This document shows, in pieces, positions 23,467-58,895 of a stretch of DNA of 64,000 nucleotides. The notes beneath the pieces were generated by a model, which was not told the origin of the DNA, searched no databases, and worked only from the letters and a program-made list of their open reading frames with translations. The translations under genes were made by a program, and so were the position numbers. How positions within the stretch are numbered: position 1 is the stretch's first letter; the number at the start of each line of letters is the position of its first letter. This DNA is from Patescibacteria group bacterium (lineage in GTDB: Bacteria > Patescibacteriota > UBA1384 > XYA2-FULL-43-10). Location of the stretch: the NCBI GenBank assembly GCA_041674405.1, contig JBAYVT010000001.1, positions 103,967 to 167,966 on the forward strand. Reading direction: 5' to 3'.

Positions 23467-24438
23467 TTATATCCCCTTATAAAAAATCTCATTATTGCGA
23501 ATAAACGATTGCATCAATCGTTTTAGAAAAGGATCAGAGATTTGGCTCTTGTATTTATTGATTGCAGACTCCTTGGAATCGATTTGCCCGCGCGTAAGGT
23601 TAAATTTATACCAAATTCTCGCACCAGAGGTAAGCCTTACTGGTGGTGTAATTGATTTATCCTTATGTAGACCCGAATCACTGGGAAAATTTCTGTAGTG
23701 GACAAGGTAGCTAAAATATGCCGCATTCGATCCTGTCTCTCCCACCCCTTTCATAACAAATTCCCCCGTTGCCCGATGGTCGGAATGCCGATCATAAATA
23801 CTGGTCGCAAGAACAATTGTTGGTTTATAATTTTCGATAATATCTTTAATATTTTTATCAAGGTTTTTGCCGGTATACGATACATTTGGTAAATAAGAAT
23901 TATTATAAGGGGTCGAGCTGGTGTGGGTATATGGTGACTCATAGGGCCTAGACCAGTTTTTCACAAACAAACTGTAGATACCGCGGTCAGGATAACCCAA
24001 AAAAATTATATTATCGTTGTGTACACCGAGGACCGACAGAGCGTTTTTGCTTTCATCCTGACGCTTATAACCCGATGAAATATAATCAGATGCGCTGGGA
24101 TATAATTTTCTAAATTCTTCAGCAGTCGTGAAATGATGGCCATCACCATTGGTTATAAAAACGACAATAACTTTTGCCCCATTTTGTACTGCTTGAGCAA
24201 TATATCCTCCGGTACCCAAAATCTCATCATCATTGTGCGGAGCAAAGATGAGGATTGTATCATTCTCTCTCGGGTCCGGCATGTTTGGCATAAAATTAAG
24301 AGATGCACTAGGGGCTGAAGCATAACTGCGCAGAAAAATTATATTGCCAATAAAAATCAAAACAAGAGCCGCAAGAACCCAGAACCACCTGGCCTTATAA
24401 ATTCTTTTGAAATCTTTTTGGTTTTTTACCTTAAACAT
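23467..24438 (-). CDS. PIG-L/LmbE family N-acetylglucosaminyl deacetylase, membrane-anchored
   Basis: APHNDDEILGTGG and HSDHRATG motifs. Confidence 0.8.
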   Translation of the reverse strand: MFKVKNQKDFKRIYKARWFWVLAALVLIFIGNIIFLRSYASAPSASLNFMPNMPDPRENDTILIFAPHNDDEILGTGGYIAQAVQNGAKVIVVFITNGDGHHFTTAEEFRKLYPSASDYISSGYKRQDESKNALSVLGVHNDNIIFLGYPDRGIYSLFVKNWSRPYESPYTHTSSTPYNNSYLPNVSYTGKNLDKNIKDIIENYKPTIVLATSIYDRHSDHRATGEFVMKGVGETGSNAAYFSYLVHYRNFPSDSGLHKDKSITPPVRLTSGARIWYKFNLTRGQIDSKESAINKYKSQISDPFLKRLMQSFIRNNEIFYKGI

Positions 24439-28453: not shown

Positions 28454-29500
28454 TCAGTTGTGAGGAGGATTTTCATAACACAACCATTCGGCCTCCGTCT
28501 CGCCCTGATTAATCACCTGGTGGCTGGCTCCCGGTAAAATTGTAATGGAAGGAAGACGATTAAAAAAACTTTTAGTTATGATTGGTGGGCATTTCTTACC
28601 AGATTCAAATTTTTTCTTTTTGCCATTGACAATCACTTCCAATGTTCCTTTTATGACAGCAATCCGATGTTCAGTGAGGGGATGTTTGTGCAAATCGGTT
28701 TTTGAGCCCGGCTGCATAATCATATAGGCCAAGGATGATTTACCTCTAAATGGACACGTTTTTAATCCTGAGATTTTTTTATATTTGATGGCGTTCGATC
28801 GATTTGGCGAACATTCGATGATCCTTGGCTTAAATCCCCATGACCAGACTCGATATTGTTTGCCTTCGATTGGCCTAAGGTATGGGATTTTTATATAACC
28901 TGTCGCCTCAAACCCTGCATTTGTCAACCTATTAGATAAAAATTTTCCAGAAGTAAAATAATAATCTGCTCTTCCAATATATTCGAGATCTTTTTTGTTT
29001 CTCGGCTCTTCATTGCCGATCATAATTATTCCTCCACTTTCCAGGGTAGTGTACGACTGGCACAAAAAATTTTCCAGAAGCAAACTTTTGCCTACAAGAT
29101 GGCCAATAAGACCGTCAGAAAATATAACGTGAAATTTTTCTTTCAGTTTGAATGGCTTAGAAACATCTAAAATTTGGGTATTAAGGCCTTTTTGACGAGC
29201 ATATTCAAGGGCTGAATTACAAAGATCAGTCGCCAGAATATTGTAACCTGCATCAGCCATATCTTTTTCCAAAAAAGCATTGCCGCAACCGCAGCTTAAA
29301 ACATTTTTCTTGTTAGATGGTAAATATGAGGAGAGCTCAGAGACCAATCTCATGACAGTTCGGCGATATGATTTGTGTGAGGTGGACGGAGTCATCGATT
29401 GTTTTATGGCTCCACCCTTTTCCCAGACATCAAGACGACTTTGCCCATTTTCAGCGGCATTTTCATAGTAATTTTTGACCTGTGCCTGAAATTTGCCCAT
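28454..29500 (-). CDS. Class I SAM-dependent methyltransferase fused to a C-terminal cupin domain
   Basis: Motif I VLSCGCGNAFL. C-terminal HKHPLTEHRIAVIKGTLEVIVNG is a cupin_2-like beta-barrel. Confidence 0.65.
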   Translation of the reverse strand: MGKFQAQVKNYYENAAENGQSRLDVWEKGGAIKQSMTPSTSHKSYRRTVMRLVSELSSYLPSNKKNVLSCGCGNAFLEKDMADAGYNILATDLCNSALEYARQKGLNTQILDVSKPFKLKEKFHVIFSDGLIGHLVGKSLLLENFLCQSYTTLESGGIIMIGNEEPRNKKDLEYIGRADYYFTSGKFLSNRLTNAGFEATGYIKIPYLRPIEGKQYRVWSWGFKPRIIECSPNRSNAIKYKKISGLKTCPFRGKSSLAYMIMQPGSKTDLHKHPLTEHRIAVIKGTLEVIVNGKKKKFESGKKCPPIITKSFFNRLPSITILPGASHQVINQGETEAEWLCYENPPHN

Positions 29501-29517
29501 AAAACCCTGATAATTAA

Positions 29518-30081
29518 TTATTTAAGGCGTTTCAAGCACCATTTTATTTTTTCTTGCCCCGATGTGTAATCTTTGGGGATTGAACGAACGATCAAGACAA
29601 CGTCTGATTTTTTATAACCAAGCGATATCAGTGCTTCAAGAATATCGTCATCCTCATTCTGAAGGGAAATCACACCTGAACCATCCAATCCAGATAGTTT
29701 GGGTTTCAAATCAAGAATGATCTTAGCCGCAACTTTCTTGCCTATTCCAGAAATCGATGTGAAAAATCCTAGATCGTCGGAAATAATCGCCTGAATAATT
29801 TTATCCGATCTTGATGCCGACATTATCGCCATCCCAGCTTTCGGCCCGACGCCATTGACCGAAATTAACTTTTCAAAAAGTTCGAGTTCTTCCCATGTCT
29901 TAAATCCGTAAAAATCATCCGCATCTTCTTTGATATGTTCGTGGATAAATATCTCGATTTCTTCGTTTTCTTTAGCAATATAATTTTGGCCAATAGAAAT
30001 TCTGAAGCCAACTCCAGCCACATCTAAGATAATTATCCCATTTTGAATTAATTTAATTTTTCCTGACAAATAGCTGATCAT
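29518..30081 (-). CDS. ruvA: Holliday junction DNA helicase subunit RuvA
   Basis: OB fold then two HhH motifs (GVGPKAGMAIM, GIGKKVAAKII), ~190 aa. Confidence 0.9.
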   Translation of the reverse strand: MISYLSGKIKLIQNGIIILDVAGVGFRISIGQNYIAKENEEIEIFIHEHIKEDADDFYGFKTWEELELFEKLISVNGVGPKAGMAIMSASRSDKIIQAIISDDLGFFTSISGIGKKVAAKIILDLKPKLSGLDGSGVISLQNEDDDILEALISLGYKKSDVVLIVRSIPKDYTSGQEKIKWCLKRLK

Positions 30082-30135: not shown

Positions 30136-31521
30136 TTATTCATCAACGATCACTCCCCCGTTATTCTCAATAATTTTAATAACCTGATCGCGCTTTTCTT
30201 CGATAAGTTCAGGATCTGTTCCTTCTAAATTTAGCCGGACCAGTGGCTGGGTTGCAGACGGCCGCAAGTTGAGATGCCACTCGTTGTATTCAACAGACAA
30301 CCCATCTTCTTCGTTCGTTTTTCCATCGTTAAATTTATTTTTCAACGTCCGAATGACATTGTCAATGTCTTTAACTTGAAAATTTGTTTCTTCAAACATA
30401 AAAATACTCTCTCGATATTCTTCCAATGCTTCTGATAACTTAATATTGTTTTCAGATAAATATTCAACAATTAAAAGCAAGGTAATCATTGACGAATCAG
30501 CAAAGAAAAAATCCCGATAAATGTTGTGAGCGGACGCTTCACCGCCAAAAATCGCGTTAACTTTCTGCATCTTTTCACGAATAAATGGATAGCCCGATTT
30601 AGATGGAAGATATTTTGACCCAAGGCTTTCAACTTGATTTTTAACCGCCCAACCGCGGCGCATGTCAAAAACAACTGTGTTTGCGCCATTCTTTGTGATT
30701 AAGATTTTAGAAATAAGTGCGCTTAAATAATCTGTGTCAACAAAGTCTCCATTCTCATCCAAAAGAGCGATCCTGTCAGCGTCGCCATCAAAGATAGCCG
30801 CAAATGACAGGTCGTCAATTTTTTTGCATTCCTCGATAAGTTGATTCCTATTTTTGGAAAGCATTGGATTTGGCCCATGGTTTGGAAAGTCGCCATCAGG
30901 AACAAAATTGATTTGAGTCATTTTGATGGGTAAACCTCTGGTAATTTTGGTAAGGACATTCCCCGCGACACCATTTGAAGCATCACAAACAAATTTGATT
31001 GGTTTAATATTTTTAATATCAATAAATGAAAAAATTTTTTCTAAATAATCCGGCCAAATATCAATTTTTTTAATTTCTCCGCGTTTCGATTGTGTCTCCA
31101 TATTTCCATTTTCGGACAATGCAATGTTTTTAATCTTTTCAAGGCCATAACCCATGCTTACCGGAAGCACTTCAGAATCAATAATCTTTATCCCATTATA
31201 TTCTCTTGGGTTGTGTGAAGCAGTGATCATAACACCAGGCACTTTAAGATGACCGCAAGCAAAATAAACTACCTCAATCGGCACCATGCCAAGATCAAAG
31301 ACATCAACTCCGGCATCCAAAAAAATCTCCTTTGCTTCAGCGGCAAATTCAGGCGATGAAAGCCGGGAATCAAAACCAAGAACAACACTCTTTGGTTCAA
31401 GATATTTGATGAGGGCGGCAGCAATCTTTTTAATTGCTTCCACACCTAATTCCTCCGGCACAACCCCGCGAATATCATAAGTTTTAAAGATTGACGGATT
31501 CATTGCTCCACACTCCTTCAT
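30136..31521 (-). CDS. Phosphoglucomutase/phosphomannomutase (alpha-D-phosphohexomutase)
   Basis: Active-site TASHNPREYNGIK and Mg-binding FDGDADR. The likely start is the internal ATG at 31503 (MNPSIFKTYDIRG). Confidence 0.9.
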   Translation of the reverse strand: MKECGAMNPSIFKTYDIRGVVPEELGVEAIKKIAAALIKYLEPKSVVLGFDSRLSSPEFAAEAKEIFLDAGVDVFDLGMVPIEVVYFACGHLKVPGVMITASHNPREYNGIKIIDSEVLPVSMGYGLEKIKNIALSENGNMETQSKRGEIKKIDIWPDYLEKIFSFIDIKNIKPIKFVCDASNGVAGNVLTKITRGLPIKMTQINFVPDGDFPNHGPNPMLSKNRNQLIEECKKIDDLSFAAIFDGDADRIALLDENGDFVDTDYLSALISKILITKNGANTVVFDMRRGWAVKNQVESLGSKYLPSKSGYPFIREKMQKVNAIFGGEASAHNIYRDFFFADSSMITLLLIVEYLSENNIKLSEALEEYRESIFMFEETNFQVKDIDNVIRTLKNKFNDGKTNEEDGLSVEYNEWHLNLRPSATQPLVRLNLEGTDPELIEEKRDQVIKIIENNGGVIVDE

Positions 31522-32677
31522 TATTTAACGCTTCAATCAGAAGCCTCTTGTTTGCTTCTAATCCTTTTTTAGCATGGTCTATTTCTTCCGTTGTTGTTAA
31601 ATTTCCATTCTTTAGTCTTAGCCAATAATACATCATTGGCACTCTGGCAAAACGATAATAAATCAATGCTAATCGAAATAATTCTTTAAAATCCGGATTT
31701 TCCGAATTCTCCTCCAAAACTTCCGAAAACATTTCTTGCTGTCTTTCCGGATACATCCAGTGAGTGGCTGGAATATACGAAAAAGCAGCGGCTTGGTTGT
31801 CGAGTAATTTTAATCTTTCCCAGTCAATTATCGTCATTGAACCATCGTCTGATTTTATTATGTTGCTCATATTTATATCAATGTTAGTAAATACTGCGCC
31901 AGAATTTCTTACAAATTCTTCCTTTTCGTCTAAAAGAGCCATCATTCTGTCAAAAACATCATCACCAAGCCACTCCCTATATTCAGATTCATGCTCGTGC
32001 ATCATTTCTCGATTTCTTTTGTGGGTCGGGCAGGCTCCCTCAGAATTCATTGTTATTTCTGGGTGCTCGGCTGCAATTTTTTCCGGATTCATTGCCTTTT
32101 GCATCGCTTTAATAAACTCGACTAAATTCTTAAAATCCTCTATTGGCATTGGCCCATCGGCAGCTTCGAACCACACGTGGCTCATGGGCTCCCCTTCGGC
32201 ATATTCATACTGAACAAAACCATTGCCATTTTCCTCGGATTCACTTGCAAGATATTTGGGAATATTGACGCGTCCTCTTATATTTTCGGGAATTTCTTCT
32301 TCAATATCACTCGCGATATCCTCATAAAAAATTCTTTCGTTTCTGGCTTCACCCCTAGGATCTTCGCCGCTTAAACGCATTTTAGTAATAACAATCTTGT
32401 GTTCAGGGTGTGCGCCTTCAAATATCCAAAATGGACGAGTGACTTTATTTTCTCTTATATAATTCAGAACCGCCTCGTCCCCCTCCAAATTTAGATCAAT
32501 ATTTTCATGTACGCCATAAAATCTTACTGGCCTAACTTCCTGCACACCTCGGCTTTTCAAACACTCAAGTACCTGTTGCCAAAGCTTATTAAGCTCATCC
32601 CCAGATTCAATTTTTTCTTTCCAACTCAATCCCTCGATTGGCTCTTCGTGGCTTGAGGAATTAATTCCATCTCTCAT
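31484..32677 (-). CDS. APH/ChoK-fold kinase-like protein (phosphotransferase enzyme family)
   Basis: Catalytic-loop-like FTNIDINMSNIIKSDDGSMTIIDWE, a variant of HGD..N...D[FW]E. Confidence 0.55.
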   Translation of the reverse strand: MRDGINSSSHEEPIEGLSWKEKIESGDELNKLWQQVLECLKSRGVQEVRPVRFYGVHENIDLNLEGDEAVLNYIRENKVTRPFWIFEGAHPEHKIVITKMRLSGEDPRGEARNERIFYEDIASDIEEEIPENIRGRVNIPKYLASESEENGNGFVQYEYAEGEPMSHVWFEAADGPMPIEDFKNLVEFIKAMQKAMNPEKIAAEHPEITMNSEGACPTHKRNREMMHEHESEYREWLGDDVFDRMMALLDEKEEFVRNSGAVFTNIDINMSNIIKSDDGSMTIIDWERLKLLDNQAAAFSYIPATHWMYPERQQEMFSEVLEENSENPDFKELFRLALIYYRFARVPMMYYWLRLKNGNLTTTEEIDHAKKGLEANKRLLIEALNNEGVWSNESVNL

Positions 32678-32681
32678 ATTT

Positions 32682-33653
32682 TTACCTCACATGCAAAATT
32701 GCTTCGAAAGAATCGCCGGCAGCAGCAAGATACCTTGCCCATATATGAGTCCTGTCGATTTTTTTTGATTCCTCAGTCGTTTTGATCTTTAAACTAATGG
32801 ATGGCCATTTGTGCATATGAAACAAAATTCTTATGATACTGGACCGAAACATTTCTTCTAACTTTTCGTTTGTAATAAATAGTTCTATCAGCACCTTCTG
32901 CCAATTTTCGTATCTCCACAGAAATAACCAGAGGTATGTAAAATCAATTGTAAGGTTATCAAAACAAAATTGCTCGAAATCAGAAAATATTATATTATCT
33001 CCCGGGCGAACAATAATATTAGCCGGGCTCATATCACTATTACATGCTTTAATATTTTCGTTTGAATAGTATAATTTTTTATTATTCGCAAAGAAATTCT
33101 GCTGATTTATCAGTGATAGACCTAGATATTTACCAATATTTTCCGGATTGTAATCTTCCAAATCTTCGAAATATTTTTGTTGAAAATTCTTTTTCAGGTT
33201 ATTTAATTCATGAGATTCTACGGATATTTTTTGTAAAGATTCCAAGTTGTCAATAATTTTTGGAACAATAATTTTGTCCTTGTCTATAAACTCATTTCTT
33301 AAAATATCATATCCCATAAGCGATTCATTTGGCAGGAGCATTGAAAGGGAGTTCCCTGGATAATATTGGCGAATAGACCAAAAATATTTACCACTAATTC
33401 CTGTTTCTATAATTTTCGCTCTTGCAAGGCCAAAATTCTTGTTGTGTTTATCAATATATTGGTCGACGGCTTTTTCTTTCTCCATATTTCTAACCCGGCC
33501 GGTAGAGCTTTTAGGAAAAATTTTTAGCACCACTTCATTGTTATTGATCAGCCCAACAAAAATATAACTTTCCCTTTCGTAGTCCTTTTTAATAGCCAAT
33601 TTTTCATTAAAATGCAAATCCACAAAGAGATCTGCGAGTTCTTTTTGATACAT
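32682..33653 (-). CDS. APH/ChoK-fold kinase-like protein (second paralog)
   Basis: NSDMSPANIIVRPGDNIIFSDFEQ is a Brenner/catalytic-loop analogue. Confidence 0.55.
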   Translation of the reverse strand: MYQKELADLFVDLHFNEKLAIKKDYERESYIFVGLINNNEVVLKIFPKSSTGRVRNMEKEKAVDQYIDKHNKNFGLARAKIIETGISGKYFWSIRQYYPGNSLSMLLPNESLMGYDILRNEFIDKDKIIVPKIIDNLESLQKISVESHELNNLKKNFQQKYFEDLEDYNPENIGKYLGLSLINQQNFFANNKKLYYSNENIKACNSDMSPANIIVRPGDNIIFSDFEQFCFDNLTIDFTYLWLFLWRYENWQKVLIELFITNEKLEEMFRSSIIRILFHMHKWPSISLKIKTTEESKKIDRTHIWARYLAAAGDSFEAILHVR

Positions 33654-34736
33654 CTAGCTAATCCTTTCGTACAAATTCATGTATTTTTCCGCCACCGCAT
33701 CGAAAGAATATTTTTCTTCAACCGTTTTCCGACAATTTTTTCTCATTTCCTGGTACTGCTTTTCGGGCAGTGACAATATTTTATTGGCTGCCTCCTCAAA
33801 AGCGCGGATATCTCCTTGTTCAACCTTATATCCGTTTACCCCGTTTTCAATTATTTCATCCACCGCTCCCGTTTTGTAGGCAATAACCGGAGTTCCACAT
33901 GCCATCGCTTCGATTACCGTGAGGCCAAAAGTTTCATTCGAAGAAGGAAACAATAAGGCCTTGGCGCTATAAAAACCGGGCCTTTTTTCTTTATCCACAA
34001 AACCAACAGCTGTGATTTCATCGTTTAAGCTTGGTAATATATCGCTCCTAAAATATTTTTCATTTTCACCGATTGGCTTTCCCCCAATCTCGAGTTTATA
34101 GTGCAATTTACTGGCAACCTTGATTGCGTGAGTGGCTCCCTTGGGCTCGATCATGCGCCCAATCCAGACGAAATTATCTTTAGCGCTTTCAGAAAAAGGA
34201 AAGTCGCCAAGATACACCCCATTGGGTATTATTTCATGTTGGCGTGAAAAGTCTTTCATTTGGAAACCTGAAACACCAACAAAGGTAATCAGGTTAATTT
34301 GTTCGGGCGTTAATAGATCAAATAATATTTTGTAACTAAAATTTTCTATTCCCATATGCATGGTAAGAATAGATTTTTTACCATTTTTGGCCGCCAGATA
34401 TACAGGTAAAAAATTCACCATACTAAAATGAGTCATCCTATCTTCGCACATCACTCTGTCAATTGCTTTTGCATAAACTGCAAATTCTTCAAACGCTGTA
34501 GTGCGATAATTCCAGCCAGTATTGAAAAAATCTGCTCGCTTCGAATATCCTAAAGATTTTTCTACTATGGGTATCAGAGAATTTAATTTTTCAGAATCTC
34601 CAGTCGCCAACAATTCAAAGTTGTCCAATTTCTGTTCCAATGTTTTGGCTAGGTAATAATTAAAAACCTCTAAGCCTCCGGGCACGGCAGGACCGGTTGG
34701 CATAAATATGTTAGAAAATAAAGAAATTTTTTTCAT
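33654..34736 (-). CDS. Glycosyltransferase family 4
   Basis: ETFGLTVIEAMACGTPVIAYKTGAVDEI is a GT4 EX7E region. Confidence 0.85.
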   Translation of the reverse strand: MKKISLFSNIFMPTGPAVPGGLEVFNYYLAKTLEQKLDNFELLATGDSEKLNSLIPIVEKSLGYSKRADFFNTGWNYRTTAFEEFAVYAKAIDRVMCEDRMTHFSMVNFLPVYLAAKNGKKSILTMHMGIENFSYKILFDLLTPEQINLITFVGVSGFQMKDFSRQHEIIPNGVYLGDFPFSESAKDNFVWIGRMIEPKGATHAIKVASKLHYKLEIGGKPIGENEKYFRSDILPSLNDEITAVGFVDKEKRPGFYSAKALLFPSSNETFGLTVIEAMACGTPVIAYKTGAVDEIIENGVNGYKVEQGDIRAFEEAANKILSLPEKQYQEMRKNCRKTVEEKYSFDAVAEKYMNLYERIS

Positions 34737-34737
34737 C

Positions 34738-35859
34738 TTAACCCAAAAATTTATTATATGCAGCTAGGTAATTTTGCGCCATTTTAACAAGGCTAAATTC
34801 CTTGATGATCCTATCGCGTGGAGCAGATGGCTTTATGAAAGACGCTTTTTTAAGAGCTTCTCGAATCTCATTTTTACCAAAACTACTAATCAAGATTCCG
34901 TTCTCGCCATTATTGATCACATCTTTAATACCCCCGATCGGTGACGCTATCGGAACAACCCCCGAAGACATCGCCTCCAGAAGGACCATGGGCATACCTT
35001 CTCTTTCAGTTGGCATAAATATCAACTTTGCGTTTTGATAAATCGGAATAAGCTCATTTGGAGTTTTGTACCCCAAATAATCCACGTTATCTTTTCCAAA
35101 ATATTGTTTTTCTAATCTCTCAAAATATTTAATCTCATTCGGAGACGAACCTCTTGGCCCGATTATAGAAAGTTTTTGCCCGGATTCTTTTACGGATAAT
35201 ATCAACTCCTCAACTTTTTTTTCGGGCACAATTCTCCCAACAAATATCACTCCTTGTTTTTCAGAATTTGCCTGAAAATTATATTTGTCTGTATCAACCC
35301 CATTGGGAGTGTAGCCGAAATTTTTGATGCTATTTTTTTGGCAAAATTTCTCATTGTCGTGGCTTATGCAAGTCATACCAGATGATGATTTTGACAATTC
35401 ACGATAACGATATTGATCATAAGCGTGAAAAATACTAGCTAAATCACCATGGATCGTATACAAAACCGGAATCTTTGCAGCCAAGAATATAAAGAAATTT
35501 GTCCTCATATCATGAGAATTAATAAGATCAATTTTACCCGCCCTATAGGCTTTTAAGGCTTCATTGGCAGCAAAAAGATCGCTCTCTACCCTTCTTTGTG
35601 TATATTCAATCGGATTTTTTGTGTCTGGCCCGAATTCCCTCCACGCAGATGGCAGATCCGCCCCGCTGCAAGTAATTTCATTACTGCTGTCCCTGGAAGT
35701 AAAAACCATATTCTCACAATTAAGATCGGACAATTTTTTTGATAATTCGAACACTAGAGAGTTTGGTGCGCAAATAACGTCTGGGTCGGGTGGCACCGGT
35801 TTCGAGCTAAGAGGAATGATTCCAACTCTAATTTTTTTTGATCGCCTTTTGAACAACAT
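34738..35859 (-). CDS. Glycosyltransferase family 4
   Basis: EREGMPMVLLEAMSSGVVPIASPIGGIKDVI. Confidence 0.85.
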   Translation of the reverse strand: MLFKRRSKKIRVGIIPLSSKPVPPDPDVICAPNSLVFELSKKLSDLNCENMVFTSRDSSNEITCSGADLPSAWREFGPDTKNPIEYTQRRVESDLFAANEALKAYRAGKIDLINSHDMRTNFFIFLAAKIPVLYTIHGDLASIFHAYDQYRYRELSKSSSGMTCISHDNEKFCQKNSIKNFGYTPNGVDTDKYNFQANSEKQGVIFVGRIVPEKKVEELILSVKESGQKLSIIGPRGSSPNEIKYFERLEKQYFGKDNVDYLGYKTPNELIPIYQNAKLIFMPTEREGMPMVLLEAMSSGVVPIASPIGGIKDVINNGENGILISSFGKNEIREALKKASFIKPSAPRDRIIKEFSLVKMAQNYLAAYNKFLG

Positions 35860-35931
35860 TATGTTATAGTTTTATTAAGTTAATCTATTCCATTATGTTT
35901 CAATTTGGACAATTAATCAAATAGAGGGATT

Positions 35932-36717
35932 ATGAAAATATCTATCGTCATGCCTGTGTATAATCGTGAAGATTTCTTACCAGAAGTCTTGCAAAGCTAT
36001 TTCAACCAAACGGATAAGGACTGGGAACTAATAATTGTCGATGATTGCAGCATAGATTCGAGTTTCACAATCTGCCAAGATCTTGCCAAAAAAGATGATC
36101 GAATAAAATGTTTTCGCCTGAAAAAAAATTCTGGTGTTGCCATCGCAAGAGATTATGGCAACAAAAAAGCGAATGGAGATATTATTGTCGTTGCGGACTC
36201 TGATGATTTTGCCTATCCCGATAGAATCAAAATAATTAGAGAGTATTTTGAAAAGAATCCTGATGCTGACATCTTCTATACCAATATGGATCTAAATTAC
36301 ATTGACGATGGAATAGTAAAACCTAGATTTTTTCAGCCTTATGTCAAAGATTTATTATATAACATAAATTTTGTGCCTAACGCATCTTCGTCTTATAAGA
36401 AATCGGCCTACGTCAAAGTAGAGGGCTACGATAGCGAGCAAAAGATTGGAGAAGACTACGATCTCTGGCTTCAGTTTTCTGATAAAAACATGAAGTTTGG
36501 TTATGACCCTCGGCCAACAGTAAAAGTTACTATGCATAAAAAAAGTATTCGTTCAGAAGAGCAAGATAAACACCGCTCATATATTGAGCGAGTTTGGAAA
36601 AAACATAAATCAGCCGGAGCTGATCTAACTCAGGTTAAACAATTGGCAAATAAAGAAACATATGACTTTTTCAGCCAACCAAATAAATTAGAACTATGGT
36701 TCAATATTAAGAATTAG
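35932..36717 (+). CDS. Glycosyltransferase family 2
   Basis: ISIVMPVYNRE...LIIVDDCSID with DxD (ADSDD). Confidence 0.9.
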   Translation: MKISIVMPVYNREDFLPEVLQSYFNQTDKDWELIIVDDCSIDSSFTICQDLAKKDDRIKCFRLKKNSGVAIARDYGNKKANGDIIVVADSDDFAYPDRIKIIREYFEKNPDADIFYTNMDLNYIDDGIVKPRFFQPYVKDLLYNINFVPNASSSYKKSAYVKVEGYDSEQKIGEDYDLWLQFSDKNMKFGYDPRPTVKVTMHKKSIRSEEQDKHRSYIERVWKKHKSAGADLTQVKQLANKETYDFFSQPNKLELWFNIKN

Positions 36718-37837
36718 CGATCAATCTTTTATATAAACTCTCATATTGTGGAACAATTTTTCCAACAGAGAAATTTTCTTCAACTTTCTTTTTTGCATTT
36801 TCTGAAATTTTCTTGTACTCCCTTTCATCTGTTAGGACCTGAACAGCATATTCAGCCATTTTTGAAGTCTCACCAACCTCTACCAAAAAACCATTCTTTT
36901 GATGATCAATCATCTCGCTCATTCCGCCCACCCTGGTAGAAATGACCGGGACCCCCAAAGACATCGCTTCCAAAGATGACAAGCTAAAGTTCTCTTTTTC
37001 CGAGGGCAAAAGAAATAAATGAGAAATCGACAATAGTTTTTCTATTGAGCTTTGCAAACCCAAGAAATGAATTTTATTTATCAGCCCGCGCTTGGACGCC
37101 AATTTATATGCCGTACGCTGTTCTGGCCCGTCGCCAATTAACAATAATCTGGAATCAACCTTCTTCTGAACTTCTTCAAATACTTTTATCACGTCTTCAA
37201 TTCGTTTAACAGCGCGGAAGTTGGACATATGGGTAATGATCTTTGCATTATTGGTTCCAAAAACCTCTTTTAAATCCTCGGGTATTTTCTTAGGCGGTTT
37301 TATATCCACAAAATTGTAAATTACATCGATCTTTTCTTCTAATTTATATGCTTCTTTCGCTTCATCCACCATGGCTTTTGAAACAGAGGTAATTGCATCT
37401 GATTTGGAAATGGTAAAACCAACCGCATCTTTAATTATTGGATCATGCCCAATAATTGAAACATCCGTCCCATGCAAAGTAGTCACGACTTTAACTTTTT
37501 TCCCGGCCCTCTCCACCATTTCTCGAGCAATGTATGCAGACAGCGAATGGGGAACAGCGTAATGGCAATTGATAACCTGAATATTGTTCTGCATTACAAC
37601 ATTGTATATTTTATTTGCCAGAGTTAATGAATAGGGAGCAGTATCAAAAAGCGGATATTCAAATTGTTCAACTTCATGATAGAAAACATTTTTTTTCCAC
37701 GGACCAATAAGCTTGAAAGGTACTTCGGATGCAATAAAATGGACCTGGTGGCCCCTTTTTGCTAATTCGAGACCAAGAGAGGTACCGACAATTCCACTCC
37801 CGCCGCTTGAAGGATAACATATTATTGCAATTTTCAT
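36707..37837 (-). CDS. GT4 glycosyltransferase, BshA/MshA-like (N-acetyl-glucosaminyl transferase type)
   Basis: N-terminus MKIAIICYPSSGGSGIVGTSLGLELAKRGHQVHFIA closely resembles the BshA N-terminus, with a GT4 C-terminal E...E region. Confidence 0.75.
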   Translation of the reverse strand: MKIAIICYPSSGGSGIVGTSLGLELAKRGHQVHFIASEVPFKLIGPWKKNVFYHEVEQFEYPLFDTAPYSLTLANKIYNVVMQNNIQVINCHYAVPHSLSAYIAREMVERAGKKVKVVTTLHGTDVSIIGHDPIIKDAVGFTISKSDAITSVSKAMVDEAKEAYKLEEKIDVIYNFVDIKPPKKIPEDLKEVFGTNNAKIITHMSNFRAVKRIEDVIKVFEEVQKKVDSRLLLIGDGPEQRTAYKLASKRGLINKIHFLGLQSSIEKLLSISHLFLLPSEKENFSLSSLEAMSLGVPVISTRVGGMSEMIDHQKNGFLVEVGETSKMAEYAVQVLTDEREYKKISENAKKKVEENFSVGKIVPQYESLYKRLIANS

Positions 37838-37868
37838 ACTACTCTCCTGAATTTATTGATATGGTGAT

Positions 37869-38867
37869 TTAGTCCTTTTTTGCCGGCTTACGCAAGTACT
37901 CTGCTGCCTCTTCCGGAGACATTATATCGATTATGACGCCGCTTCCAAGTTCGTATCCGCCATAATTGGCGAGGCGTGGTGTAATTTCGAGATGCCAGTG
38001 GTAAGAGGCAGAATTTTCGAAAGTATTTGGCAGTGAATGAATATAAAAGTTAAGCGGTATATTTTTAACATTTTTTTCCATTTTTTGCAAGACACAGTGG
38101 AGCGATTCACCCAAAGATTTCATGTGCGATTTAGGCGTATTTTCAAATTCGCTTTCATGGTTTTTGGGCAAAATCCAAGTTTCCATTGGGAATCTGGCAG
38201 CAAAGAACGTGATCGCAATAAAATTATCATTTTCATAAACAATGCGAATTTTTTCTTTCTTTTCATGCTTGATAATGTCGCAAAAAACACAAACGCCGTT
38301 AATGCCATAATACCGCTCTGCGCCGTCCATTTCCCGCCCGACATTATTTGCTACAATTCCCGAGGCAAATATTTGCGCGTGGGGGTGTTCGATTGATGCA
38401 GCGGCCTCTGCTCCCTGATTGTATATTGGCATCACAGAAACCACTCCTTCTACATTTTTCATATCTATATACCGGTCCTGGATGACTTCAAGCATTTCTG
38501 TGATTTTTGAACTATCGAAGGCGATCAAGTTTTCGTCGTGATTTTTTGCAATTATAACTTCGTGATCGCCGACAGCCGGCCTTGCCCTGTAAAAACCTTC
38601 CTCGGGATAGAAACTGCGGAGTTGCGTCTTGGATTCTTTTTCGACGAATGCCGGGAACTTGTTCTCTATAACATAAAAATTTGTTGTTGCGGCTCTGCGA
38701 ACTTTTTCATTTTGTTTGTATCCTTCCGATCCCTCGCAAAACGGGCATTTGGACTTATCAGAAACTTTGACGCTTGGTGGAATTACAAAATCCTGCGGCC
38801 TCTTTGCTCGCTCCGGAGCAATAACAACCCACTCTCCGGTTATAATATTTTGTCTTAACTGAGGCAT
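37869..38867 (-). CDS. Galactose-1-phosphate uridylyltransferase family (GalT-like, HIT superfamily)
   Basis: N-terminal CPFCEGSE zinc knuckle and HPHAQI (HxHxQ) nucleotidyl-transfer motif. Confidence 0.8.
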   Translation of the reverse strand: MPQLRQNIITGEWVVIAPERAKRPQDFVIPPSVKVSDKSKCPFCEGSEGYKQNEKVRRAATTNFYVIENKFPAFVEKESKTQLRSFYPEEGFYRARPAVGDHEVIIAKNHDENLIAFDSSKITEMLEVIQDRYIDMKNVEGVVSVMPIYNQGAEAAASIEHPHAQIFASGIVANNVGREMDGAERYYGINGVCVFCDIIKHEKKEKIRIVYENDNFIAITFFAARFPMETWILPKNHESEFENTPKSHMKSLGESLHCVLQKMEKNVKNIPLNFYIHSLPNTFENSASYHWHLEITPRLANYGGYELGSGVIIDIMSPEEAAEYLRKPAKKD

Positions 38868-38952: not shown

Positions 38953-39459
38953 CTATTTTTTTAGATTGATGTTGGTTTGTGCATGCGTGATTGCAACCGC
39001 CAACGCATCTGCCGCATCATCTGGTTTGGGGCATGATTTGAGTTTGCAAATAATTTTAACCATCTCCTGAATTTGGGATTTTTCCGCTCTGCCATATCCC
39101 GTAAGCGCTTGCTTAACCTGCAACGGCGTATATTCATAAACCGGAAGATTCGCGCCTTTTGCACACACTATGGCCACACCCCTAGCCTCAGCTACCGAAA
39201 TGACAGTTTTTTGGTTCTTGAAAAAAAACAGGCTCTCAATTGCTACTTGGTCTGGTTTTTCCTTTTCAATTATATCAGACAGGCTTTTGTAAATAAAATT
39301 CAATCGGTCAGGCTGGTTGAGATTGGCGCGGGTGCGAATACAACCATATTTAACAGGTCTTATGCCACCTGAAGCCTTCTCTATAACCCCATAACCCATA
39401 ATCCCAGTACCCGGATCGATGCCTAAGATCTTAATTGTTTCATTGCTAAATTGTTTCAT
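38953..39459 (-). CDS. ruvC: Crossover junction endodeoxyribonuclease RuvC
   Basis: ILGIDPGTGIMGYGVIE..., RNase H-like fold, ~168 aa. Confidence 0.9.
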   Translation of the reverse strand: MKQFSNETIKILGIDPGTGIMGYGVIEKASGGIRPVKYGCIRTRANLNQPDRLNFIYKSLSDIIEKEKPDQVAIESLFFFKNQKTVISVAEARGVAIVCAKGANLPVYEYTPLQVKQALTGYGRAEKSQIQEMVKIICKLKSCPKPDDAADALAVAITHAQTNINLKK

Positions 39460-39510: not shown

Positions 39511-40236
39511 TTAAAGATTTACATTGATGTAAATCTTACTCACATCATCCAGGTCATCAAGCGCATCCATTAGCTTCATCAAAGATTCTTTTTTGTCTTC
39601 AGCAATATCTATAGAAGTATTCGGTTTCATCGAAGGTTCAGCTGATTCTAGCACAATTTTTGCACTCTCCAGGCTGGTTTTCACATTATTTAGATCAGAA
39701 AAATTGGTGTATATATAGTACATACTATCATCTTTTTCGAAATCCTCGGCTCCTGAGTCGATTATCGCTTCCTCAAGTTCTTCATCTTTTAAATTGTTTT
39801 TAGTCTCATCGACTATGATCTCACCAACTTTTTTAAATTGATAATTTACGCTACCCGGCCCAGCAAGGGACCCACCGTTTCGATTTAATATTGCTTTGAT
39901 ATCGGCGACTGTACGATTTTTGTTGTCAGTAAGGCATTCTACTAAAAGTCCAGCCCCACCAGAACCATAAACTTCATATACAACCTCTTCAATAGCCGCT
40001 GCATCTCCTCCGCCTGAACCTCGCTGTATGGCCCGCTCGATGTTTTCTTTTGGCATGCTTGCTGCCTTGGCGTTATCGACAGCCATACGGAGTGTCGGAT
40101 TAGATGCTGGATCCCCCCCACCATCGCGCGCAGCAATCGTGATTAGTTTACCGAGCTTGGTAAATATTTTGCCGCGCTTGGCGTCAATCACTGCTTTTTT
40201 TCTTTTAGTCGTTGCCCATTTGCTATGTCCGGACAT
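39511..40236 (-). CDS. YebC/PmpR family DNA-binding transcriptional regulator
   Basis: MSGHSKWATTKRKKAVIDAKRGKIFTKL is the canonical YebC N-terminus. The track ORF extends 38 codons further upstream; the start is set at MSGHSKW. Confidence 0.9.
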   Translation of the reverse strand: MSGHSKWATTKRKKAVIDAKRGKIFTKLGKLITIAARDGGGDPASNPTLRMAVDNAKAASMPKENIERAIQRGSGGGDAAAIEEVVYEVYGSGGAGLLVECLTDNKNRTVADIKAILNRNGGSLAGPGSVNYQFKKVGEIIVDETKNNLKDEELEEAIIDSGAEDFEKDDSMYYIYTNFSDLNNVKTSLESAKIVLESAEPSMKPNTSIDIAEDKKESLMKLMDALDDLDDVSKIYINVNL

Positions 40237-40300
40237 ATCGAAATCTCCAAATAATTTTACCCTTGCATGATACTTGAAAACGGCCCTGATTTCAATCTTG

Positions 40301-41161
40301 TCAGTTTGGAGAAATACCTCCAGGGGTAAGAGAAAACCCGATTGTGCCATCTCGGTCGGTGCGGTAGTCTTGGATATTTCGGGAATTTAATAAATCAAGA
40401 GTTGCTGCATGCGGATGGCCATATTTATTCTCCACGCCAACCTCAATAACTGCCACCTGAGGATTGATTTCGTTCAGTGTTGTGGCATTTGTCCCGTTTG
40501 TCGAGCCATGGTGAGAAATTTTCAAAAGATCGGCAGAATAATCTACATTATTTGCTTTTAACTGAGCATATGCAATTGCCTGTTCGTCGGTTTCCATATC
40601 GCCGAGAAAATCGGCGCAATGAGAAAATTCGCAAAAACGGACAAATTCCGAAGTATTGTTCAGGTTATCTCCTGAGATTCCCAAATATTTCTTGCCCGGC
40701 CAAAGAAATTGCAATTCAGCATCGCCAAAAACAGAAATCTTGTCTCCAATTTCCGGAATGGACATTGGGATATTTTTAGATGTAACAGCGTTCAAAAAAT
40801 TAAGATATTGATCACTTGTTGTGATAGAACCGGATGAATAAATCTGCCCAACCTCATATCTTTGAATGATTTGATTAATTCCAGTTAAGTGGTCTGCATG
40901 AGGATGAGTCAAAATGACGATGTCAATTCTTCGATCAGTGATCGGCATGATTTTTCCAATTTCTGAAAGGATGCTGTCATCCGGACCGCCATCGATAAGA
41001 ATTTGATAATCACCTTTTTGTATCAGTTCCGCATCCCCTTGGCCAACATTTAAGAAATATATATTGAGACTATCTGTTGTGGGGCTTTTGGCGATTGTAA
41101 CCCAAAGAAAAATCAAAATTATTATCAAAACCCCCAATATAATTTTTGTGATTCTTCTCAT
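40301..41161 (-). CDS. ComEC-type metallo-beta-lactamase domain protein, membrane-anchored (C-terminal module of ComEC/Rec2 as a separate ORF)
   Basis: ILTHPHADHLTGI MBL motif with its own N-terminal TM helix. ATGA overlap with the upstream ComEC N-terminal ORF. Confidence 0.75.
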   Translation of the reverse strand: MRRITKIILGVLIIILIFLWVTIAKSPTTDSLNIYFLNVGQGDAELIQKGDYQILIDGGPDDSILSEIGKIMPITDRRIDIVILTHPHADHLTGINQIIQRYEVGQIYSSGSITTSDQYLNFLNAVTSKNIPMSIPEIGDKISVFGDAELQFLWPGKKYLGISGDNLNNTSEFVRFCEFSHCADFLGDMETDEQAIAYAQLKANNVDYSADLLKISHHGSTNGTNATTLNEINPQVAVIEVGVENKYGHPHAATLDLLNSRNIQDYRTDRDGTIGFSLTPGGISPN

Positions 41162-43507: not shown

Positions 43508-43975
43508 ATGCAACAAAAAACGAAAAAAGATACTATTGAAGAACGCAATGGCGGATTCGCCTGTGCGCATTGTAAGAAATGGGTAAATTTTTCTGACACG
43601 ATCGGAACACATCATAGAAATCATTGCCCCTATTGCCTCTGGTCCCTGCACGTTGACGACAAAGTTTCCGGCGACCGCAAGGCAGACTGCCATAGTAGCA
43701 TGGAGCCGATTGGATTGACGCTCAAAGAGGAAGGAATCGACAAATACGGGAACAAGAAACAGGGTGATGTGATGATTATTCATCAGTGTAAAAAATGTAG
43801 CAAAATTTCAATCAACCGCATCGCCGCCGATGATGGCAATGAAAAAATATTAGATCTATTGAACTATAAAATTGATTCTAAAACAAAAAAAGATCTCAGG
43901 GACTCTTCTATTGTTGTACTCAATCAATCAAATTATCCAGAAATTAAAACAGCTCTAATCGGTAAGAACATTTGA
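43508..43975 (+). CDS. RNHCP domain-containing protein
   Basis: CAHC...HHRNHCPYC...CKKC: the eponymous RNHCP motif with flanking Cys pairs. TATAAT lies 7 nt upstream of the ATG. Confidence 0.75.
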   Translation: MQQKTKKDTIEERNGGFACAHCKKWVNFSDTIGTHHRNHCPYCLWSLHVDDKVSGDRKADCHSSMEPIGLTLKEEGIDKYGNKKQGDVMIIHQCKKCSKISINRIAADDGNEKILDLLNYKIDSKTKKDLRDSSIVVLNQSNYPEIKTALIGKNI

Positions 43976-44575
43976 GGGAGTTTCTTCTAGGTGTTTGATG
44001 TCGTTAATAGTCTTTATGGAAATTTTTTTGTTTTCATCAATCAGTACGACACTAATGCTGGTATTGGCAATTTCTGTAAGCTTGCTGCCAATTTCTTGAT
44101 CAATGTAACAAAATAAATTCTTGAGCCAAATCCCGTGTGTTACAGCTAAAATTGTTTTATCCGAATAATCATTTGCGATCATCTTAATAAATTTCTTGAC
44201 ACGTATAAGCACGTCAGTGTCATTTTCGCCTCCCTCTGGGCAAAAATCTTCCTTAGACAGGCCCGAACTTAATCTCGCCTCCTCACGCAGCACCGACAAT
44301 TTACCTTCAAATATTCCGCTTCCTTTCTCTCGAAGCAAAGGCTCGTAAATAACCGGAAGGTCTGAGTGATATTTCAAAATTTCTTTAATAGTATCTTTGG
44401 TCCTTTTTAGATCGCTACAAAAAGCGATGTCAAAGTGTTGGTCTTTTAATCTCTCTCCAACTTTTCTCGCTTGTTCGGCTCCGATTTCGGAAAGTGGGTT
44501 ATGGGAATGTCCCTGAACAATTTTTTGGTCATTGTAGCCAGTATGTCCATGGCGGACAAATACGAGATTAATCAT
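43955..44575 (-). CDS. Histidine phosphatase family protein (phosphoglycerate mutase-like)
   Basis: N-terminal LVFVRHGHTGYN (RHG motif), downstream catalytic His (VTHG). Confidence 0.85.
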   Translation of the reverse strand: MINLVFVRHGHTGYNDQKIVQGHSHNPLSEIGAEQARKVGERLKDQHFDIAFCSDLKRTKDTIKEILKYHSDLPVIYEPLLREKGSGIFEGKLSVLREEARLSSGLSKEDFCPEGGENDTDVLIRVKKFIKMIANDYSDKTILAVTHGIWLKNLFCYIDQEIGSKLTEIANTSISVVLIDENKKISIKTINDIKHLEETPSNVLTD

Positions 44576-49318: not shown

Positions 49319-49804
49319 GTGGAAATGAATCAAGAAATCTATTTGAAAATCGGAGTTGTGGTTCTAAACGAAAATGACGAAATTCTTTTGATCAAGGAGA
49401 AAGTTGATGAAGAATCAGAACCGGCGCTCAACATCATAAAAGGGACTTTTGATAAACCTCACGAAAGTATTATCGATTGCGCCAAGCGAGAATGCTTGGA
49501 GGAAGCGGGGCTTGAGGTAGAGTTTCTAGGAGTCTTGAATATATTGACCATGCAGTCTCGCGGAAAACTCAAAATCCAGTTTAATTTTGTTGCCAGAGCA
49601 AACACCGACAAGGTTTCCCTGCCAAAAGAAAGAGGCCTCCACATTGAAGGAGAAAATATCATTGGAGAATCTTGGTTTACCAACGATCAGATTGCAGATC
49701 TAGAACCCAAAGATTTTGTTGCAGATTACACGCTACGCATTATCCGAGAATGGATAGAAAATGGTAAAGTATATTCCCTAAATATTTTGGAAGACCAATT
49801 TTAA
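49319..49804 (+). CDS. NUDIX hydrolase
   Basis: Nudix box GTFDKPHESIIDCAKRECLEEAGLEV. Confidence 0.8.
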   Translation: MEMNQEIYLKIGVVVLNENDEILLIKEKVDEESEPALNIIKGTFDKPHESIIDCAKRECLEEAGLEVEFLGVLNILTMQSRGKLKIQFNFVARANTDKVSLPKERGLHIEGENIIGESWFTNDQIADLEPKDFVADYTLRIIREWIENGKVYSLNILEDQF

Positions 49805-56371: not shown

Positions 56372-56802
56372 TGTTTATTCGTTAAATATTTAACAAGTTT
56401 TTCTTTTGCAAATGTTGGATAAAGATTTGGGGTTTTTGAAATGTCGTCGAAATCCATCCAGTGAATATAGTATTGATTATTTGAATCAGTCAACATTTTT
56501 CGCGGTTCGTTGAGTTTCGGTTTTCCGCTGAATTTATCAATCAAGAAAAAGTAGCTGGTTCTACCAATATCATTTCCATTCTTTTCAACATATCCCTCAA
56601 ACAAAAGTTTTCCAGTTTCAGCATCAATACCGAGTTCTTCTTTCAATTCGCGCTTCGCTGTTTGCTCGAGACTTTCTCCTTCCTCGACTCCACCGCCGGG
56701 AAAGCTAAAATATTCTTCTCCATCCTTGATCCTACGAAACAGGAGAATTTTATTATCTTTCAATATAATCCCGCACGCTCTTTGGGTTATCCTAAAATTC
56801 AT
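56368..56802 (-). CDS. NUDIX hydrolase
   Basis: FPGGGVEEGESLEQTAKRELKEELGI. ATGA overlap with the downstream C-N hydrolase. Confidence 0.9.
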   Translation of the reverse strand: MNFRITQRACGIILKDNKILLFRRIKDGEEYFSFPGGGVEEGESLEQTAKRELKEELGIDAETGKLLFEGYVEKNGNDIGRTSYFFLIDKFSGKPKLNEPRKMLTDSNNQYYIHWMDFDDISKTPNLYPTFAKEKLVKYLTNKQ

Positions 56803-58882: not shown

Positions 58883-58895
58883 GTATTATTTTGCT

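Follow-up and report, generated by a model that had tools for sequence, protein, structure and literature searches.

A candidate glycosylation island at a fixed position between ruvC and ruvA in Patescibacteria

Background

A large part of bacterial diversity belongs to the Patescibacteria, which are host-dependent and whose genomes are very small. To our knowledge, little has been established about how they obtain activated sugars or about which glycoconjugates they make. The question is raised by a cluster of eight genes at positions 30136 to 38867 of a stretch of 64,000 nucleotides from a Patescibacteria group bacterium (contig JBAYVT010000001.1, positions 103,967 to 167,966; this whole stretch is called the window hereafter). 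The cluster encodes a phosphohexomutase, two kinase-like proteins (K1 and K2), three glycosyltransferases of family GT4, one of family GT2 and a protein of the GalT family. A preliminary description of the window took it for a salvage pathway, in which a free sugar would be phosphorylated at C1 by a kinase of the APH fold, turned into a UDP-sugar by the GalT-like protein and transferred onto a glycan.

Is this cluster peculiar to one genome, and what does it make? We report that it is the local form of an island whose position is fixed between ruvC and ruvA and which has been found so far only in Patescibacteria. Our reading, to which we give about one chance in two, is that this is a glycosylation island, where a frame made of a kinase, a GalT-family enzyme and a mutase surrounds glycosyltransferases, and that its product is a cytoplasmic glycoside.

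Results

The conserved island

K2 homologs were located on contigs of Logan, ENA and JGI, in reference genomes and in metagenomes, and the open reading frames (ORFs) which surround them were compared with the proteins of the window. This gave 39 loci (designated by the letter L and a number), which fall into 26 dereplicated groups at 95% K2 identity. Their architecture is constant: yebC-ruvC-GalT-cassette-K2-(small GT2)-(PGM)-ruvA-ruvB-queH, where PGM is the phosphohexomutase and the cassette holds 2-6 genes, the one directly after GalT being called slot 2. The genes of the window which correspond to this scheme are the following.

29518-30081, minus strand: ruvA, downstream boundary of the island (in 18 dereplicated loci an ortholog of 48-59% identity comes after PGM or K2)
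30136-31521, minus strand: PMM/PGM-type phosphohexomutase, a near-invariant gene of the frame (four PGM_PMM domains in Pfam)
31484-32677, minus strand: kinase-like K1, an accessory gene specific to this lineage and remotely paralogous to the K2 family (APH 25.4 bits)
32682-33653, minus strand: kinase K2, of an APH/choline-kinase-like (ELK) family, an invariant gene of the frame (APH 20.9 bits)
33654-34736, minus strand: GT4c, the core GT4, which abuts the start codon of K2 (Glycos_transf_1 99 bits)
34738-35859, minus strand: GT4b, an accessory GT4 of the variable cassette (Glycos_transf_1 102 bits, with Glyco_transf_4)
35932-36717, plus strand: a small soluble GT2, a near-constant core gene (Glycos_transf_2 118 bits)
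36707-37837, minus strand: BshA ortholog (GT4), in the variable slot 2 directly after GalT (TIGR03999 485.5 bits)
37869-38867, minus strand: GalT-family (HIT) protein, class I, At5g18200-like (GalP_UDP_transf N and C domains, HIT, motif HPHAQI)
38953-39459, minus strand: ruvC, upstream boundary of the island (orthologs at 52-74% identity directly before GalT in 13/13 loci)

K2 lies inside the ruvC-ruvA interval in all 18 groups that reach ruvA and in all 13 that reach ruvC. GalT directly adjoins ruvC in these same 13 of 13, and PGM stands between K2 and ruvA in 15 of the 18; it is missing in L024, L028 and L031, and there the K2-GalT pair is kept. The orthogroup counts are 11/11 for K2, 10/11 for the GT4c type, 10/11 for PGM, 9/11 for the small GT2 and 8/8 for GalT. 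Because the arrangement recurs in 26 dereplicated Patescibacteria loci, it is not due to chance. The genome matches that carry K2 belong to Patescibacteria in 10 cases out of 10 (Saccharibacteria, Berkelbacteria and unclassified members), and our literature searches returned no description of the island, of the K2 family or of a GalT in Saccharibacteria.

The gene content given in the preliminary description was recovered in full with Pfam and NCBIfam, all eight ORFs having the positions and the folds attributed to them (the Glycos_transf_1 scores of the three GT4s span 99-131 bits). Of its two kinases, K1 does not belong to the core. K1 is absent from all the other loci compared, a GT4b ortholog (45% identity) occurs solely in L001, and orthologs of the BshA-type GT4 (65-67% identity) occur solely in L006, L016 and L017. 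This shows that the cluster is composed of a conserved core of five genes and of three lineage-specific accessories, namely K1, GT4b and the BshA-type GT4. Across the loci GT4c is mostly found directly upstream of K2, and the opposite-strand orientation of GT2 is kept in L001, L005, L006, L016, L017 and L028.

The genes are closely packed: PGM and K1 overlap by 38 nt, K1 and K2 are separated by 4 nt, K2 and GT4c by 0 nt, GT4c and GT4b by 1 nt, and the tight minus-strand string runs on through ruvA, a methyltransferase-cupin fusion, ruvB and queH. A scan for promoter consensus gave 52 matches against 41.7±6.6 in the shuffled background and a scan for terminators 16 against 13±3.3. As neither shows an excess, the operon calls are made from gene spacing only.

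Besides its four domains, the phosphohexomutase has the loops expected in its superfamily for phosphoserine, metal, sugar and phosphate, and TASHNP, DGDADR, GEASAH and RPSAT can be read in its translation. It scores 342 bits against the PMM/PGM model of NCBIfam and 318 bits against that of archaeal GlmM, both under their cutoffs. In one Saccharibacteria lineage (L006, 10912-12810; L037, 338-2236) the PGM slot is occupied by a protein of 632 aa in which only PGM domain II is recognisable.

In this genome only, a fusion of a SAM-methyltransferase with a cupin (Methyltransf_11 and Cupin_2; 28454-29500, minus strand) stands between ruvA and ruvB. Most other loci lack such a gene between ruvA and ruvB, and L009 and L028 have other genes there. 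The fusion may serve the island as a tailoring enzyme, a role in which we put little confidence, or else be an unrelated insertion. On the other side, the ORF of YebC (39511-40350, minus strand, 279 aa) has 50 nt in common with the MBL-fold gene upstream; its start is probably the internal Met of MSGHSKWATTK, the first ~38 codons not being translated.

The GalT-like enzyme

In Pfam the GalT-like protein matches GalP_UDP_transf (56 bits), HIT and GalP_UDP_tr_C. It passes TIGR00209 narrowly (105.6 bits for a cutoff of 102.1) and does not reach the equivalog NF008724 (133 bits for a cutoff of 448). The residues C41xxC44, H102, H110, H161-P-H163-A-Q165, C193xxC196, H237 and H290 and the loop GG[YF]E[LM]GS are invariant across nine orthologs, and the zinc and nucleophile residues align to C52, C55, H115, H164 and H166 of E. 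coli GalT. Every nucleotidyl-transfer and metal residue is therefore present, and on this point the preliminary description stands.

The best relative in the PDB is 1Z84, the At5g18200 protein of Arabidopsis (177 bits, over residues 2-327), ahead of the GalT of P. aerophilum (90 bits) and that of E. coli (80 bits). With At5g18200 it has in common both metal-site patterns, including the second CxxC/His/His cluster, and the C-terminal GG[YF]E[LI]G loop, which the E. coli GalT alignment does not reach; the plant enzyme differs in having HSHSQ where the island protein has HPHAQ, as E. coli GalT does. Judging from these features, the protein is a catalytically intact member of the class I GalT family, IPR001937, in an At5g18200-like subgroup, and it is predicted to be a hexose-1-phosphate nucleotidyltransferase or phosphorylase.

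GalT chemistry is an exchange, and it needs UDP-glucose. Since such an exchange makes no nucleotide sugar from nucleoside triphosphate (NTP), the step from sugar-1-phosphate to UDP-sugar needs a source of UDP-glucose. Among the scanned ORFs of the window (~130 aa or more) there is no canonical sugar-1-phosphate nucleotidyltransferase, GalU, GalE, GlmS or GlmU.

GalT-type enzymes work by a ping-pong mechanism through a covalent nucleotidyl-enzyme (E-UMP) and pass the nucleotide between a nucleoside diphosphate (NDP) hexose and a hexose-1-phosphate or phosphate, and the class I members that were tested do not use N-acetylhexosamine 1-phosphate (bioRxiv 10.64898/2026.09.13.751320). At5g18200 itself is described as an ADP-glucose phosphorylase and not as a GalT, at least in the passages of PMC6329318 and of bioRxiv 10.64898/2026.09.13.751320 which cite McCoy et al. 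2006. A route in which the GalT-like protein would build UDP-sugars from scratch has to be given up: it would only exchange, starting from an NDP-hexose that already exists, and its closest characterised relative is a phosphorylase acting on ADP-glucose.

The kinases

The two kinase-like proteins had been described as having degenerate motifs, one of them being perhaps regulatory. The gathering cutoff of the Pfam family APH, PF01636, is 23.2 bits; K1 is just over it and K2 just under. The catalytic-loop and metal motifs read NIDINMSN...IDWE in K1 and NSDMSPAN...SDFE in K2. The loss is limited to the His and Gly of HGD, and both proteins retain the catalytic and the metal-binding Asp as well as the Asn. 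K1 and K2 are 26% identical over 133 aa around the catalytic loop (BLAST), and a hidden Markov model (HMM) of the K2 family scores K1 at 30 bits (E 5e-9).

In word-indexed searches both proteins had looked like near-orphans. For K2 this was overturned by an exhaustive HMMER search of 1.84 billion proteins, which found 111 representatives of its family at E<1e-30, all of ~315-330 aa. In an alignment of 99 sequences, position K44 is Lys in 89 and Arg in 10, E60 is kept in 97, D207 in 98, and N212, D225 and D237 in 99/99 each. The consensus is VLLKI...KE...GDLxPANIII...DFEW..DN...D, and its D[FW]E...DN...D signature is, by sequence, that of the APH/choline-kinase (ELK) type and not the DFG/APE pattern of protein kinases. 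Among the 99 members, 59 match APH (best E 2.9e-13) and 23 match Choline_kinase weakly, 13 Pfam families being matched in total. K1 stays nearly unique: the word-indexed search of 5.8 billion proteins gave a single homolog for it (P0002, 34% identity), in which K99, D267, N272 and D285 are conserved. With the catalytic residues conserved at 89-100% in the K2 family, and those of K1 kept in its sole homolog, the view that the motifs are degenerate, or one of the proteins regulatory, finds no support. We predict that K1 and K2 are active small-molecule kinases, K2 belonging to an uncharacterised family which so far has been seen only in Patescibacteria.

On what do they act? Against the PDB, the best matches of the K2 profile are weak and mixed (PknB-type kinases 40 bits, LanKC 27, LicA (4R77) 24.8, APH(3') 23). 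Structures of the anomeric sugar kinases NahK, AmgK, Mak and MtnK exist in the PDB; no named anomeric sugar kinase appears among the best 60 PDB profile matches of K2 or among 50 Foldseek matches of K1, and the C1 specificity supposed in the preliminary description thus finds no support there. The AlphaFold (AF2) model of K1 (pLDDT 63, pTM 0.67) matches macrolide phosphotransferases, YtaA/CotI, YihE and amicoumacin kinase with template modelling (TM) scores of 0.45-0.56 and 11-16% identity. As these matches are at the level of the fold only, no substrate can be deduced from the model. Neither K1 nor K2 matched any NCBIfam model at E<=0.01, the curated resistance families included; this, together with a likeness limited to the fold, agrees with the initial view that they are not antibiotic kinases of the APH or MPH type.

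Several other ORFs bear on the kinase slot. In two related genomes K2 is split into two ORFs (L011, 9971-10953 and 11030-11929; L036, 1864-2831), and in L011 the split copy is followed by a further K2 paralog, which suggests duplication and decay of the slot. An ORF of 339 aa beside K2 in L001 was considered as an equivalent of K1 and rejected, as it has no Pfam match and is matched neither by the K1 nor by the K2 HMM. The third APH gene (K3) reported in the preliminary description does exist (51134-52135, plus strand, APH 66 bits). It has no similarity to K2, the K2 HMM does not detect it and it lies 12 kb away, outside the conserved island, and we do not count it as a member of the system. 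Its best weak NCBIfam matches are YihE/SrkA-type kinase and type II homoserine kinase, and it is the divergent neighbour of a CYTH-domain protein (50461-51105, minus strand).

Slot 2 and the glycosyltransferases

The GT4 which occupies slot 2 in the window exceeds the cutoff of the BshA equivalog TIGR03999 by a wide margin (485.5 bits for a cutoff of 273.7, its residues 1-373 aligning on model positions 1-374) and matches the solved BshA structures 2JJM, 3MBO and 5D00 at 350-357 bits over residues 1-372. On this sequence evidence it is an ortholog of BshA, the UDP-GlcNAc:L-malate N-acetylglucosaminyltransferase, which moves N-acetylglucosamine (GlcNAc) from UDP-GlcNAc onto L-malate (PMC5790435). 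The proposal that all the GT4s act on a glycan fails for this gene, whose acceptor would be malate.

In other loci the same slot is filled in other ways. We found there GT4s similar to BshA, MshA and GlgM (133-150 bits over their full length, under the cutoffs), OtsA-like enzymes of family GT20 (425-501 bits, under the cutoffs), and a GT2-HAD fusion whose best match is glucosyl-3-phosphoglycerate synthase (144 bits for a cutoff of 262) and which is followed by a His_Phos_1 phosphatase. In L031 the slot has an extra APH kinase and a GH130 beta-mannoside phosphorylase, and an S6PP-like phosphatase comes further along.

No transmembrane or hydrophobic segment was found in the eight cluster proteins of the window or in the scanned unknown ORFs of the cassettes, and no Wzx, Wzy, initiating phosphoglycosyl transferase or ABC exporter in the ~20 cassettes examined. 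Hence the glycan product of the preliminary description lacks an initiating, polymerising or exporting enzyme in any of these cassettes. Soluble enzymes, together with the types found in slot 2, seem to fit cytoplasmic small glycosides or short oligosaccharides better than an exported polysaccharide.

At 12 kb from the BshA ortholog there is a de-N-acetylase of the PIG-L/LmbE family (23467-24438, minus strand). Its best NCBIfam match is BshB1, at 56 bits for a cutoff of 182.5, and it scores 36.7 bits against BshB2 for a cutoff of 195. The acetyl group which it removes could be that of GlcNAc-malate or of some other glycoside of GlcNAc. Of the scanned ORFs of the window with at least 400 aa, none matched a BshC family. 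With PIG-L below the level of BshB and no BshC match in these ORFs, we rejected the idea of a complete bacillithiol pathway in the window.

Other features of the window

Two aminoacyl-tRNA synthetases of the window carry inserted domains. The leucyl-tRNA synthetase (52144-55587, minus strand, 1147 aa) has a NUDIX hydrolase domain (aa 570-687) after its editing domain, and two stand-alone NUDIX genes are found near it (49319-49804, plus strand; 56368-56802, minus strand). The isoleucyl-tRNA synthetase (45042-48563, minus strand, 1173 aa) has a His_Phos_1 domain (aa 500-679) within its catalytic domain, and a stand-alone His_Phos_1 gene lies just downstream of it (43955-44575, minus strand). His_Phos_1 genes occur also inside the islands of L029 and L034.

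A hybrid sensor kinase (13301-16210, plus strand, 969 aa) with an N-terminal MEDS domain, several PAS domains, HisKA/HATPase and a receiver is elaborate for a reduced genome. The part of the window between 59 and 64 kb is only seemingly free of ORFs: a giant ORF (58884-64000, plus strand, at least 1,705 codons) covers it and runs off the end of the window. There are no tandem repeats and no Rfam matches in the region of this ORF, the Rfam matches across the window being three tRNAs only.

Discussion

What could the island do? Its frame is composed of a predicted active ELK-type kinase, an intact At5g18200-like enzyme and, usually, a mutase of the PMM/PGM type, and these are predicted to be co-transcribed. 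A conserved frame of this kind around glycosyltransferases gives the whole the look of a sugar-activation module feeding them. Hexoses would enter as phosphate esters, through K2, the mutase or both, K2 being most likely a sugar kinase for which C1 is favoured over C6. The GalT-family enzyme would shift the nucleotidyl group between an NDP-hexose and hexose-1-phosphate (or phosphate) and in this way set the pool of donor sugars. The slot-2 gene would make a small primer glycoside, which here would be the GlcNAc-malate made by the BshA ortholog from UDP-GlcNAc and L-malate, and GT2, GT4b and GT4c would extend this primer or act in parallel to it. K1 would add to these a further kinase of K2's superfamily, specific to the lineage. 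As end product we consider most likely a glycoside or a short oligosaccharide which is cytoplasmic or assembled in the cytoplasm, a classical exported polysaccharide being less likely.

The part given to K2 deserves its own grading. That it phosphorylates a precursor sugar is the role that we favour, at slightly less than even odds. The best argument that K2 supplies hexose-1-phosphate is that the K2-GalT pair persists in loci deprived of PGM. That K2 phosphorylates instead the product or the acceptor is a less likely alternative which still has to be reckoned with, and other roles share what is left. The main argument for a product kinase is the low conservation of K2, whose identity across loci is 28-44% against 53-76% for GalT, which makes it no better conserved than the glycosyltransferases.

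This last figure counts against our reading of the island as well, and so do several other observations. No residue-level evidence fixes the substrate of K2, its AlphaFold model (built on a 3-sequence alignment) being unusable with a pLDDT of 51. The NDP-hexose source which the GalT exchange would need was not found in the 64 kb of the window. In the lineage of L002 and L003, a Mur-ligase-family gene (L003, 93-1436) stands where GalT is expected, preceding a GT4-K2-GT4-GT4-PGM string on a contig which stops before ruvC. Some cassettes contain CsaB-like pyruvyl transferases (88.7 bits) and DUF218 proteins, the best NCBIfam matches of GT4c and GT2 include transferases of teichuronic acid and exopolysaccharide (TuaG, TuaC, EpsE), and the cassette of the window itself is without a phosphatase. 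Finally, a LytR-CpsA-Psr (LCP) ligase of glycopolymers to peptidoglycan, with a LytR_C domain, is encoded 10 kb away (19682-21040, minus strand) and, like the pyruvyl transferases, points to wall polymers. It implies that some polymer, not necessarily one linked to the island, is attached to the wall of the organism.

These last observations are the substance of the alternative which survives best, and which we consider possible although rather unlikely: the island would be a locus for a glycopolymer of the surface or wall, of a serotype-like or teichuronic type, whose product, linked to a lipid, would depend for its initiation, flipping and ligation on genes located elsewhere, LCP for instance, K2 being then a glycan kinase similar to WaaP and WaaY. 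A fixed position and conserved sugar-activation genes at the ends of a variable glycosyltransferase centre are indeed what is seen in cps and O-antigen loci, and the pyruvyl transferases (CsaB/WcaK-like, in several cassettes) and the teichuronic and exopolysaccharide matches of GT2 and GT4 are in keeping with it. K2 moreover evolves at the pace of the glycosyltransferases and abuts or overlaps the gene of the upstream one, as a protein-kinase-like-fold kinase translationally coupled (as predicted from gene spacing) within a glycosyltransferase operon would, and this resembles the lipopolysaccharide core kinases WaaP and WaaY. However, the island cassettes examined differ from the cps and O-antigen loci in having no initiating transferase, flippase, polymerase or exporter and no transmembrane segment in the scanned ORFs, and slot 2 is repeatedly filled by enzymes with small-molecule acceptors and by phosphatases. 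The Kdo/WaaP family is neither among the 13 Pfam families of the 99 K2 members nor among the matches of K1 and K2 themselves. The organism is monoderm-like and has no lipid A or core genes, and in the island it is the kinase that is constant and the glycosyltransferases that vary, which is different from WaaP and WaaY.

A slightly less likely alternative, which we hold to be doubtful, is the salvage chain taken literally, with K1 or K2 acting as anomeric kinases like NahK or AmgK on scavenged GlcNAc, GalNAc or galactose and with GalT making the UDP-sugar in replacement of de novo synthesis. From the chain drawn in the preliminary description, the coupling of kinase and GalT stands (GalT in 13/13 groups, PGM in 15/18), and loci deprived of PGM keep the K2-GalT pair without exception; the substrate of the kinases, the specificity for UDP and the surface glycan remain suppositions. 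The pairing of an APH-fold anomeric kinase with a GalT has a precedent in the galacto-N-biose/lacto-N-biose (GNB/LNB) pathway of Bifidobacterium (bioRxiv 10.64898/2026.09.13.751320), which comprises a GH112 phosphorylase, NahK, a class II GalT and GalE, and L031 adds to the likeness by having a phosphorylase beside an APH kinase. The island nevertheless differs from that pathway: its GalT is of class I and not II, the phosphorylase of L031 is a GH130 and not a GH112, GalE is missing, no NahK-specific similarity is seen in K2, and GNB/LNB is catabolic whereas the island has glycosyltransferases.

The Leloir pathway (GalK-GalT-GalE with PGM) offers a second comparison. The island has in common with it a kinase leading to an exchange by a class I GalT, a phosphohexomutase for the hexose-1-phosphate, and a GalT with CxxC zinc ligands and the HPH nucleophile motif. 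It departs from it by a kinase of the protein-kinase-like/APH fold instead of a GHMP kinase, by an At5g18200-like GalT with a second metal site of the Cys2His2 type and the GG[YF]E[LM]GS loop, by the fact that no GalE was found, and by genes which frame glycosyltransferases instead of forming a catabolic gal operon. Several points speak directly against a literal salvage chain: an exchange that needs UDP-glucose cannot replace de novo synthesis of UDP-sugars, the class I GalTs tested refuse N-acetylhexosamine 1-phosphate, the closest characterised relative of the GalT is an ADP-glucose phosphorylase, no NahK-specific similarity appears in the PDB profile of K2 or in the Foldseek matches of K1, and GalE is found neither in the scanned ORFs of the window nor among the classified island genes.

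A more speculative form of our own reading, an improbable one in our estimation, would turn the chemistry round. The At5g18200-like enzyme would run as a reverse phosphorylase, hexose-1-phosphate + NDP giving NDP-hexose + Pi, and would in this way feed lineage-specific cytoplasmic glycosides by an NTP-sparing route. The hexose-1-phosphates would come from K2, or from a phosphorylase such as the GH130 of L031, and the acceptors would be malate (BshA here), 3-phosphoglycerate (GpgS-like enzymes elsewhere) and glucose-6-phosphate (OtsA-like enzymes elsewhere).

Less probable still is a bacillithiol-like thiol pathway, in which BshA would make GlcNAc-malate, the PIG-L protein would turn it into GlcN-malate, a BshC encoded elsewhere would add cysteine and the other genes of the cluster would stand beside it as unrelated neighbours. 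The scores of BshA, against its equivalog as well as against the solved structures, and a PIG-L family deacetylase at 12 kb plead for it. On the other side the PIG-L protein falls well short of BshB1, no ORF of the size of BshC scanned in the window matches BshC, the BshA ortholog is present in some islands only, other small-acceptor glycosyltransferases filling the slot elsewhere, and the top-ranked literature on bacillithiol and the candidate phyla radiation (CPR) contains no mention of it. More generally, slot 2 recalls BshA and MshA and the pairs OtsA/OtsB, GpgS/GpgP and SPS/SPP, being BshA here and OtsA-like, GpgS-HAD with His_Phos_1, or MshA/GlgM-like elsewhere. The island differs from these pathways in that no BshC was found, PIG-L is below the level of BshB and all the slot-2 enzymes other than BshA are under their equivalog cutoffs, and these pathways have no counterpart to the conserved kinase, GT2 and GT4c.

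Finally, the idea that the kinases are phosphocholine or ethanolamine kinases (LicA-like) or antibiotic kinases (APH/MPH) standing among glycosyltransferases by chance can invoke the weak Choline_kinase matches of 23 of the 99 K2 members, the match of the K2 profile to LicA and the macrolide phosphotransferases which are the best fold matches of K1, but it is very improbable in view of the absence of any LicC- or LicD-type gene among the classified island genes, of the lack of NCBIfam matches for K1 and K2, of a structural likeness at the level of the fold only (TM at most 0.56, 11-16% identity) and of a strict co-location with GalT and PGM which is unexpected for a resistance gene.

We come back to the reading of the locus as a glycosylation island with a cytoplasmic glycoside as its product. 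The individual folds are ordinary; what is new is a kinase family for which only Patescibacteria have yielded members to date and a conserved combination of genes whose position is fixed. An observation made in a single genome has thus become an object for comparison, composed of a fixed island, a kinase family always paired with an unusual GalT-family enzyme, and a slot which swaps among BshA-, GpgS-, OtsA- and GlgM-like primer synthases. Three small soluble proteins, namely K2, the GalT-like enzyme and the BshA ortholog, are open to direct expression and assay. If K2 is a sugar kinase whose product goes to a GalT homolog of the phosphorylase type, this would explain how reduced genomes sustain glycosylation; if it modifies the product instead, it would define a new bacterial family of glycan or glycoside kinases. 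And the NTP-sparing route, were it true, would be a previously undescribed way of supplying nucleotide sugars and glycosides to the energy-poor, host-dependent cells of the CPR.

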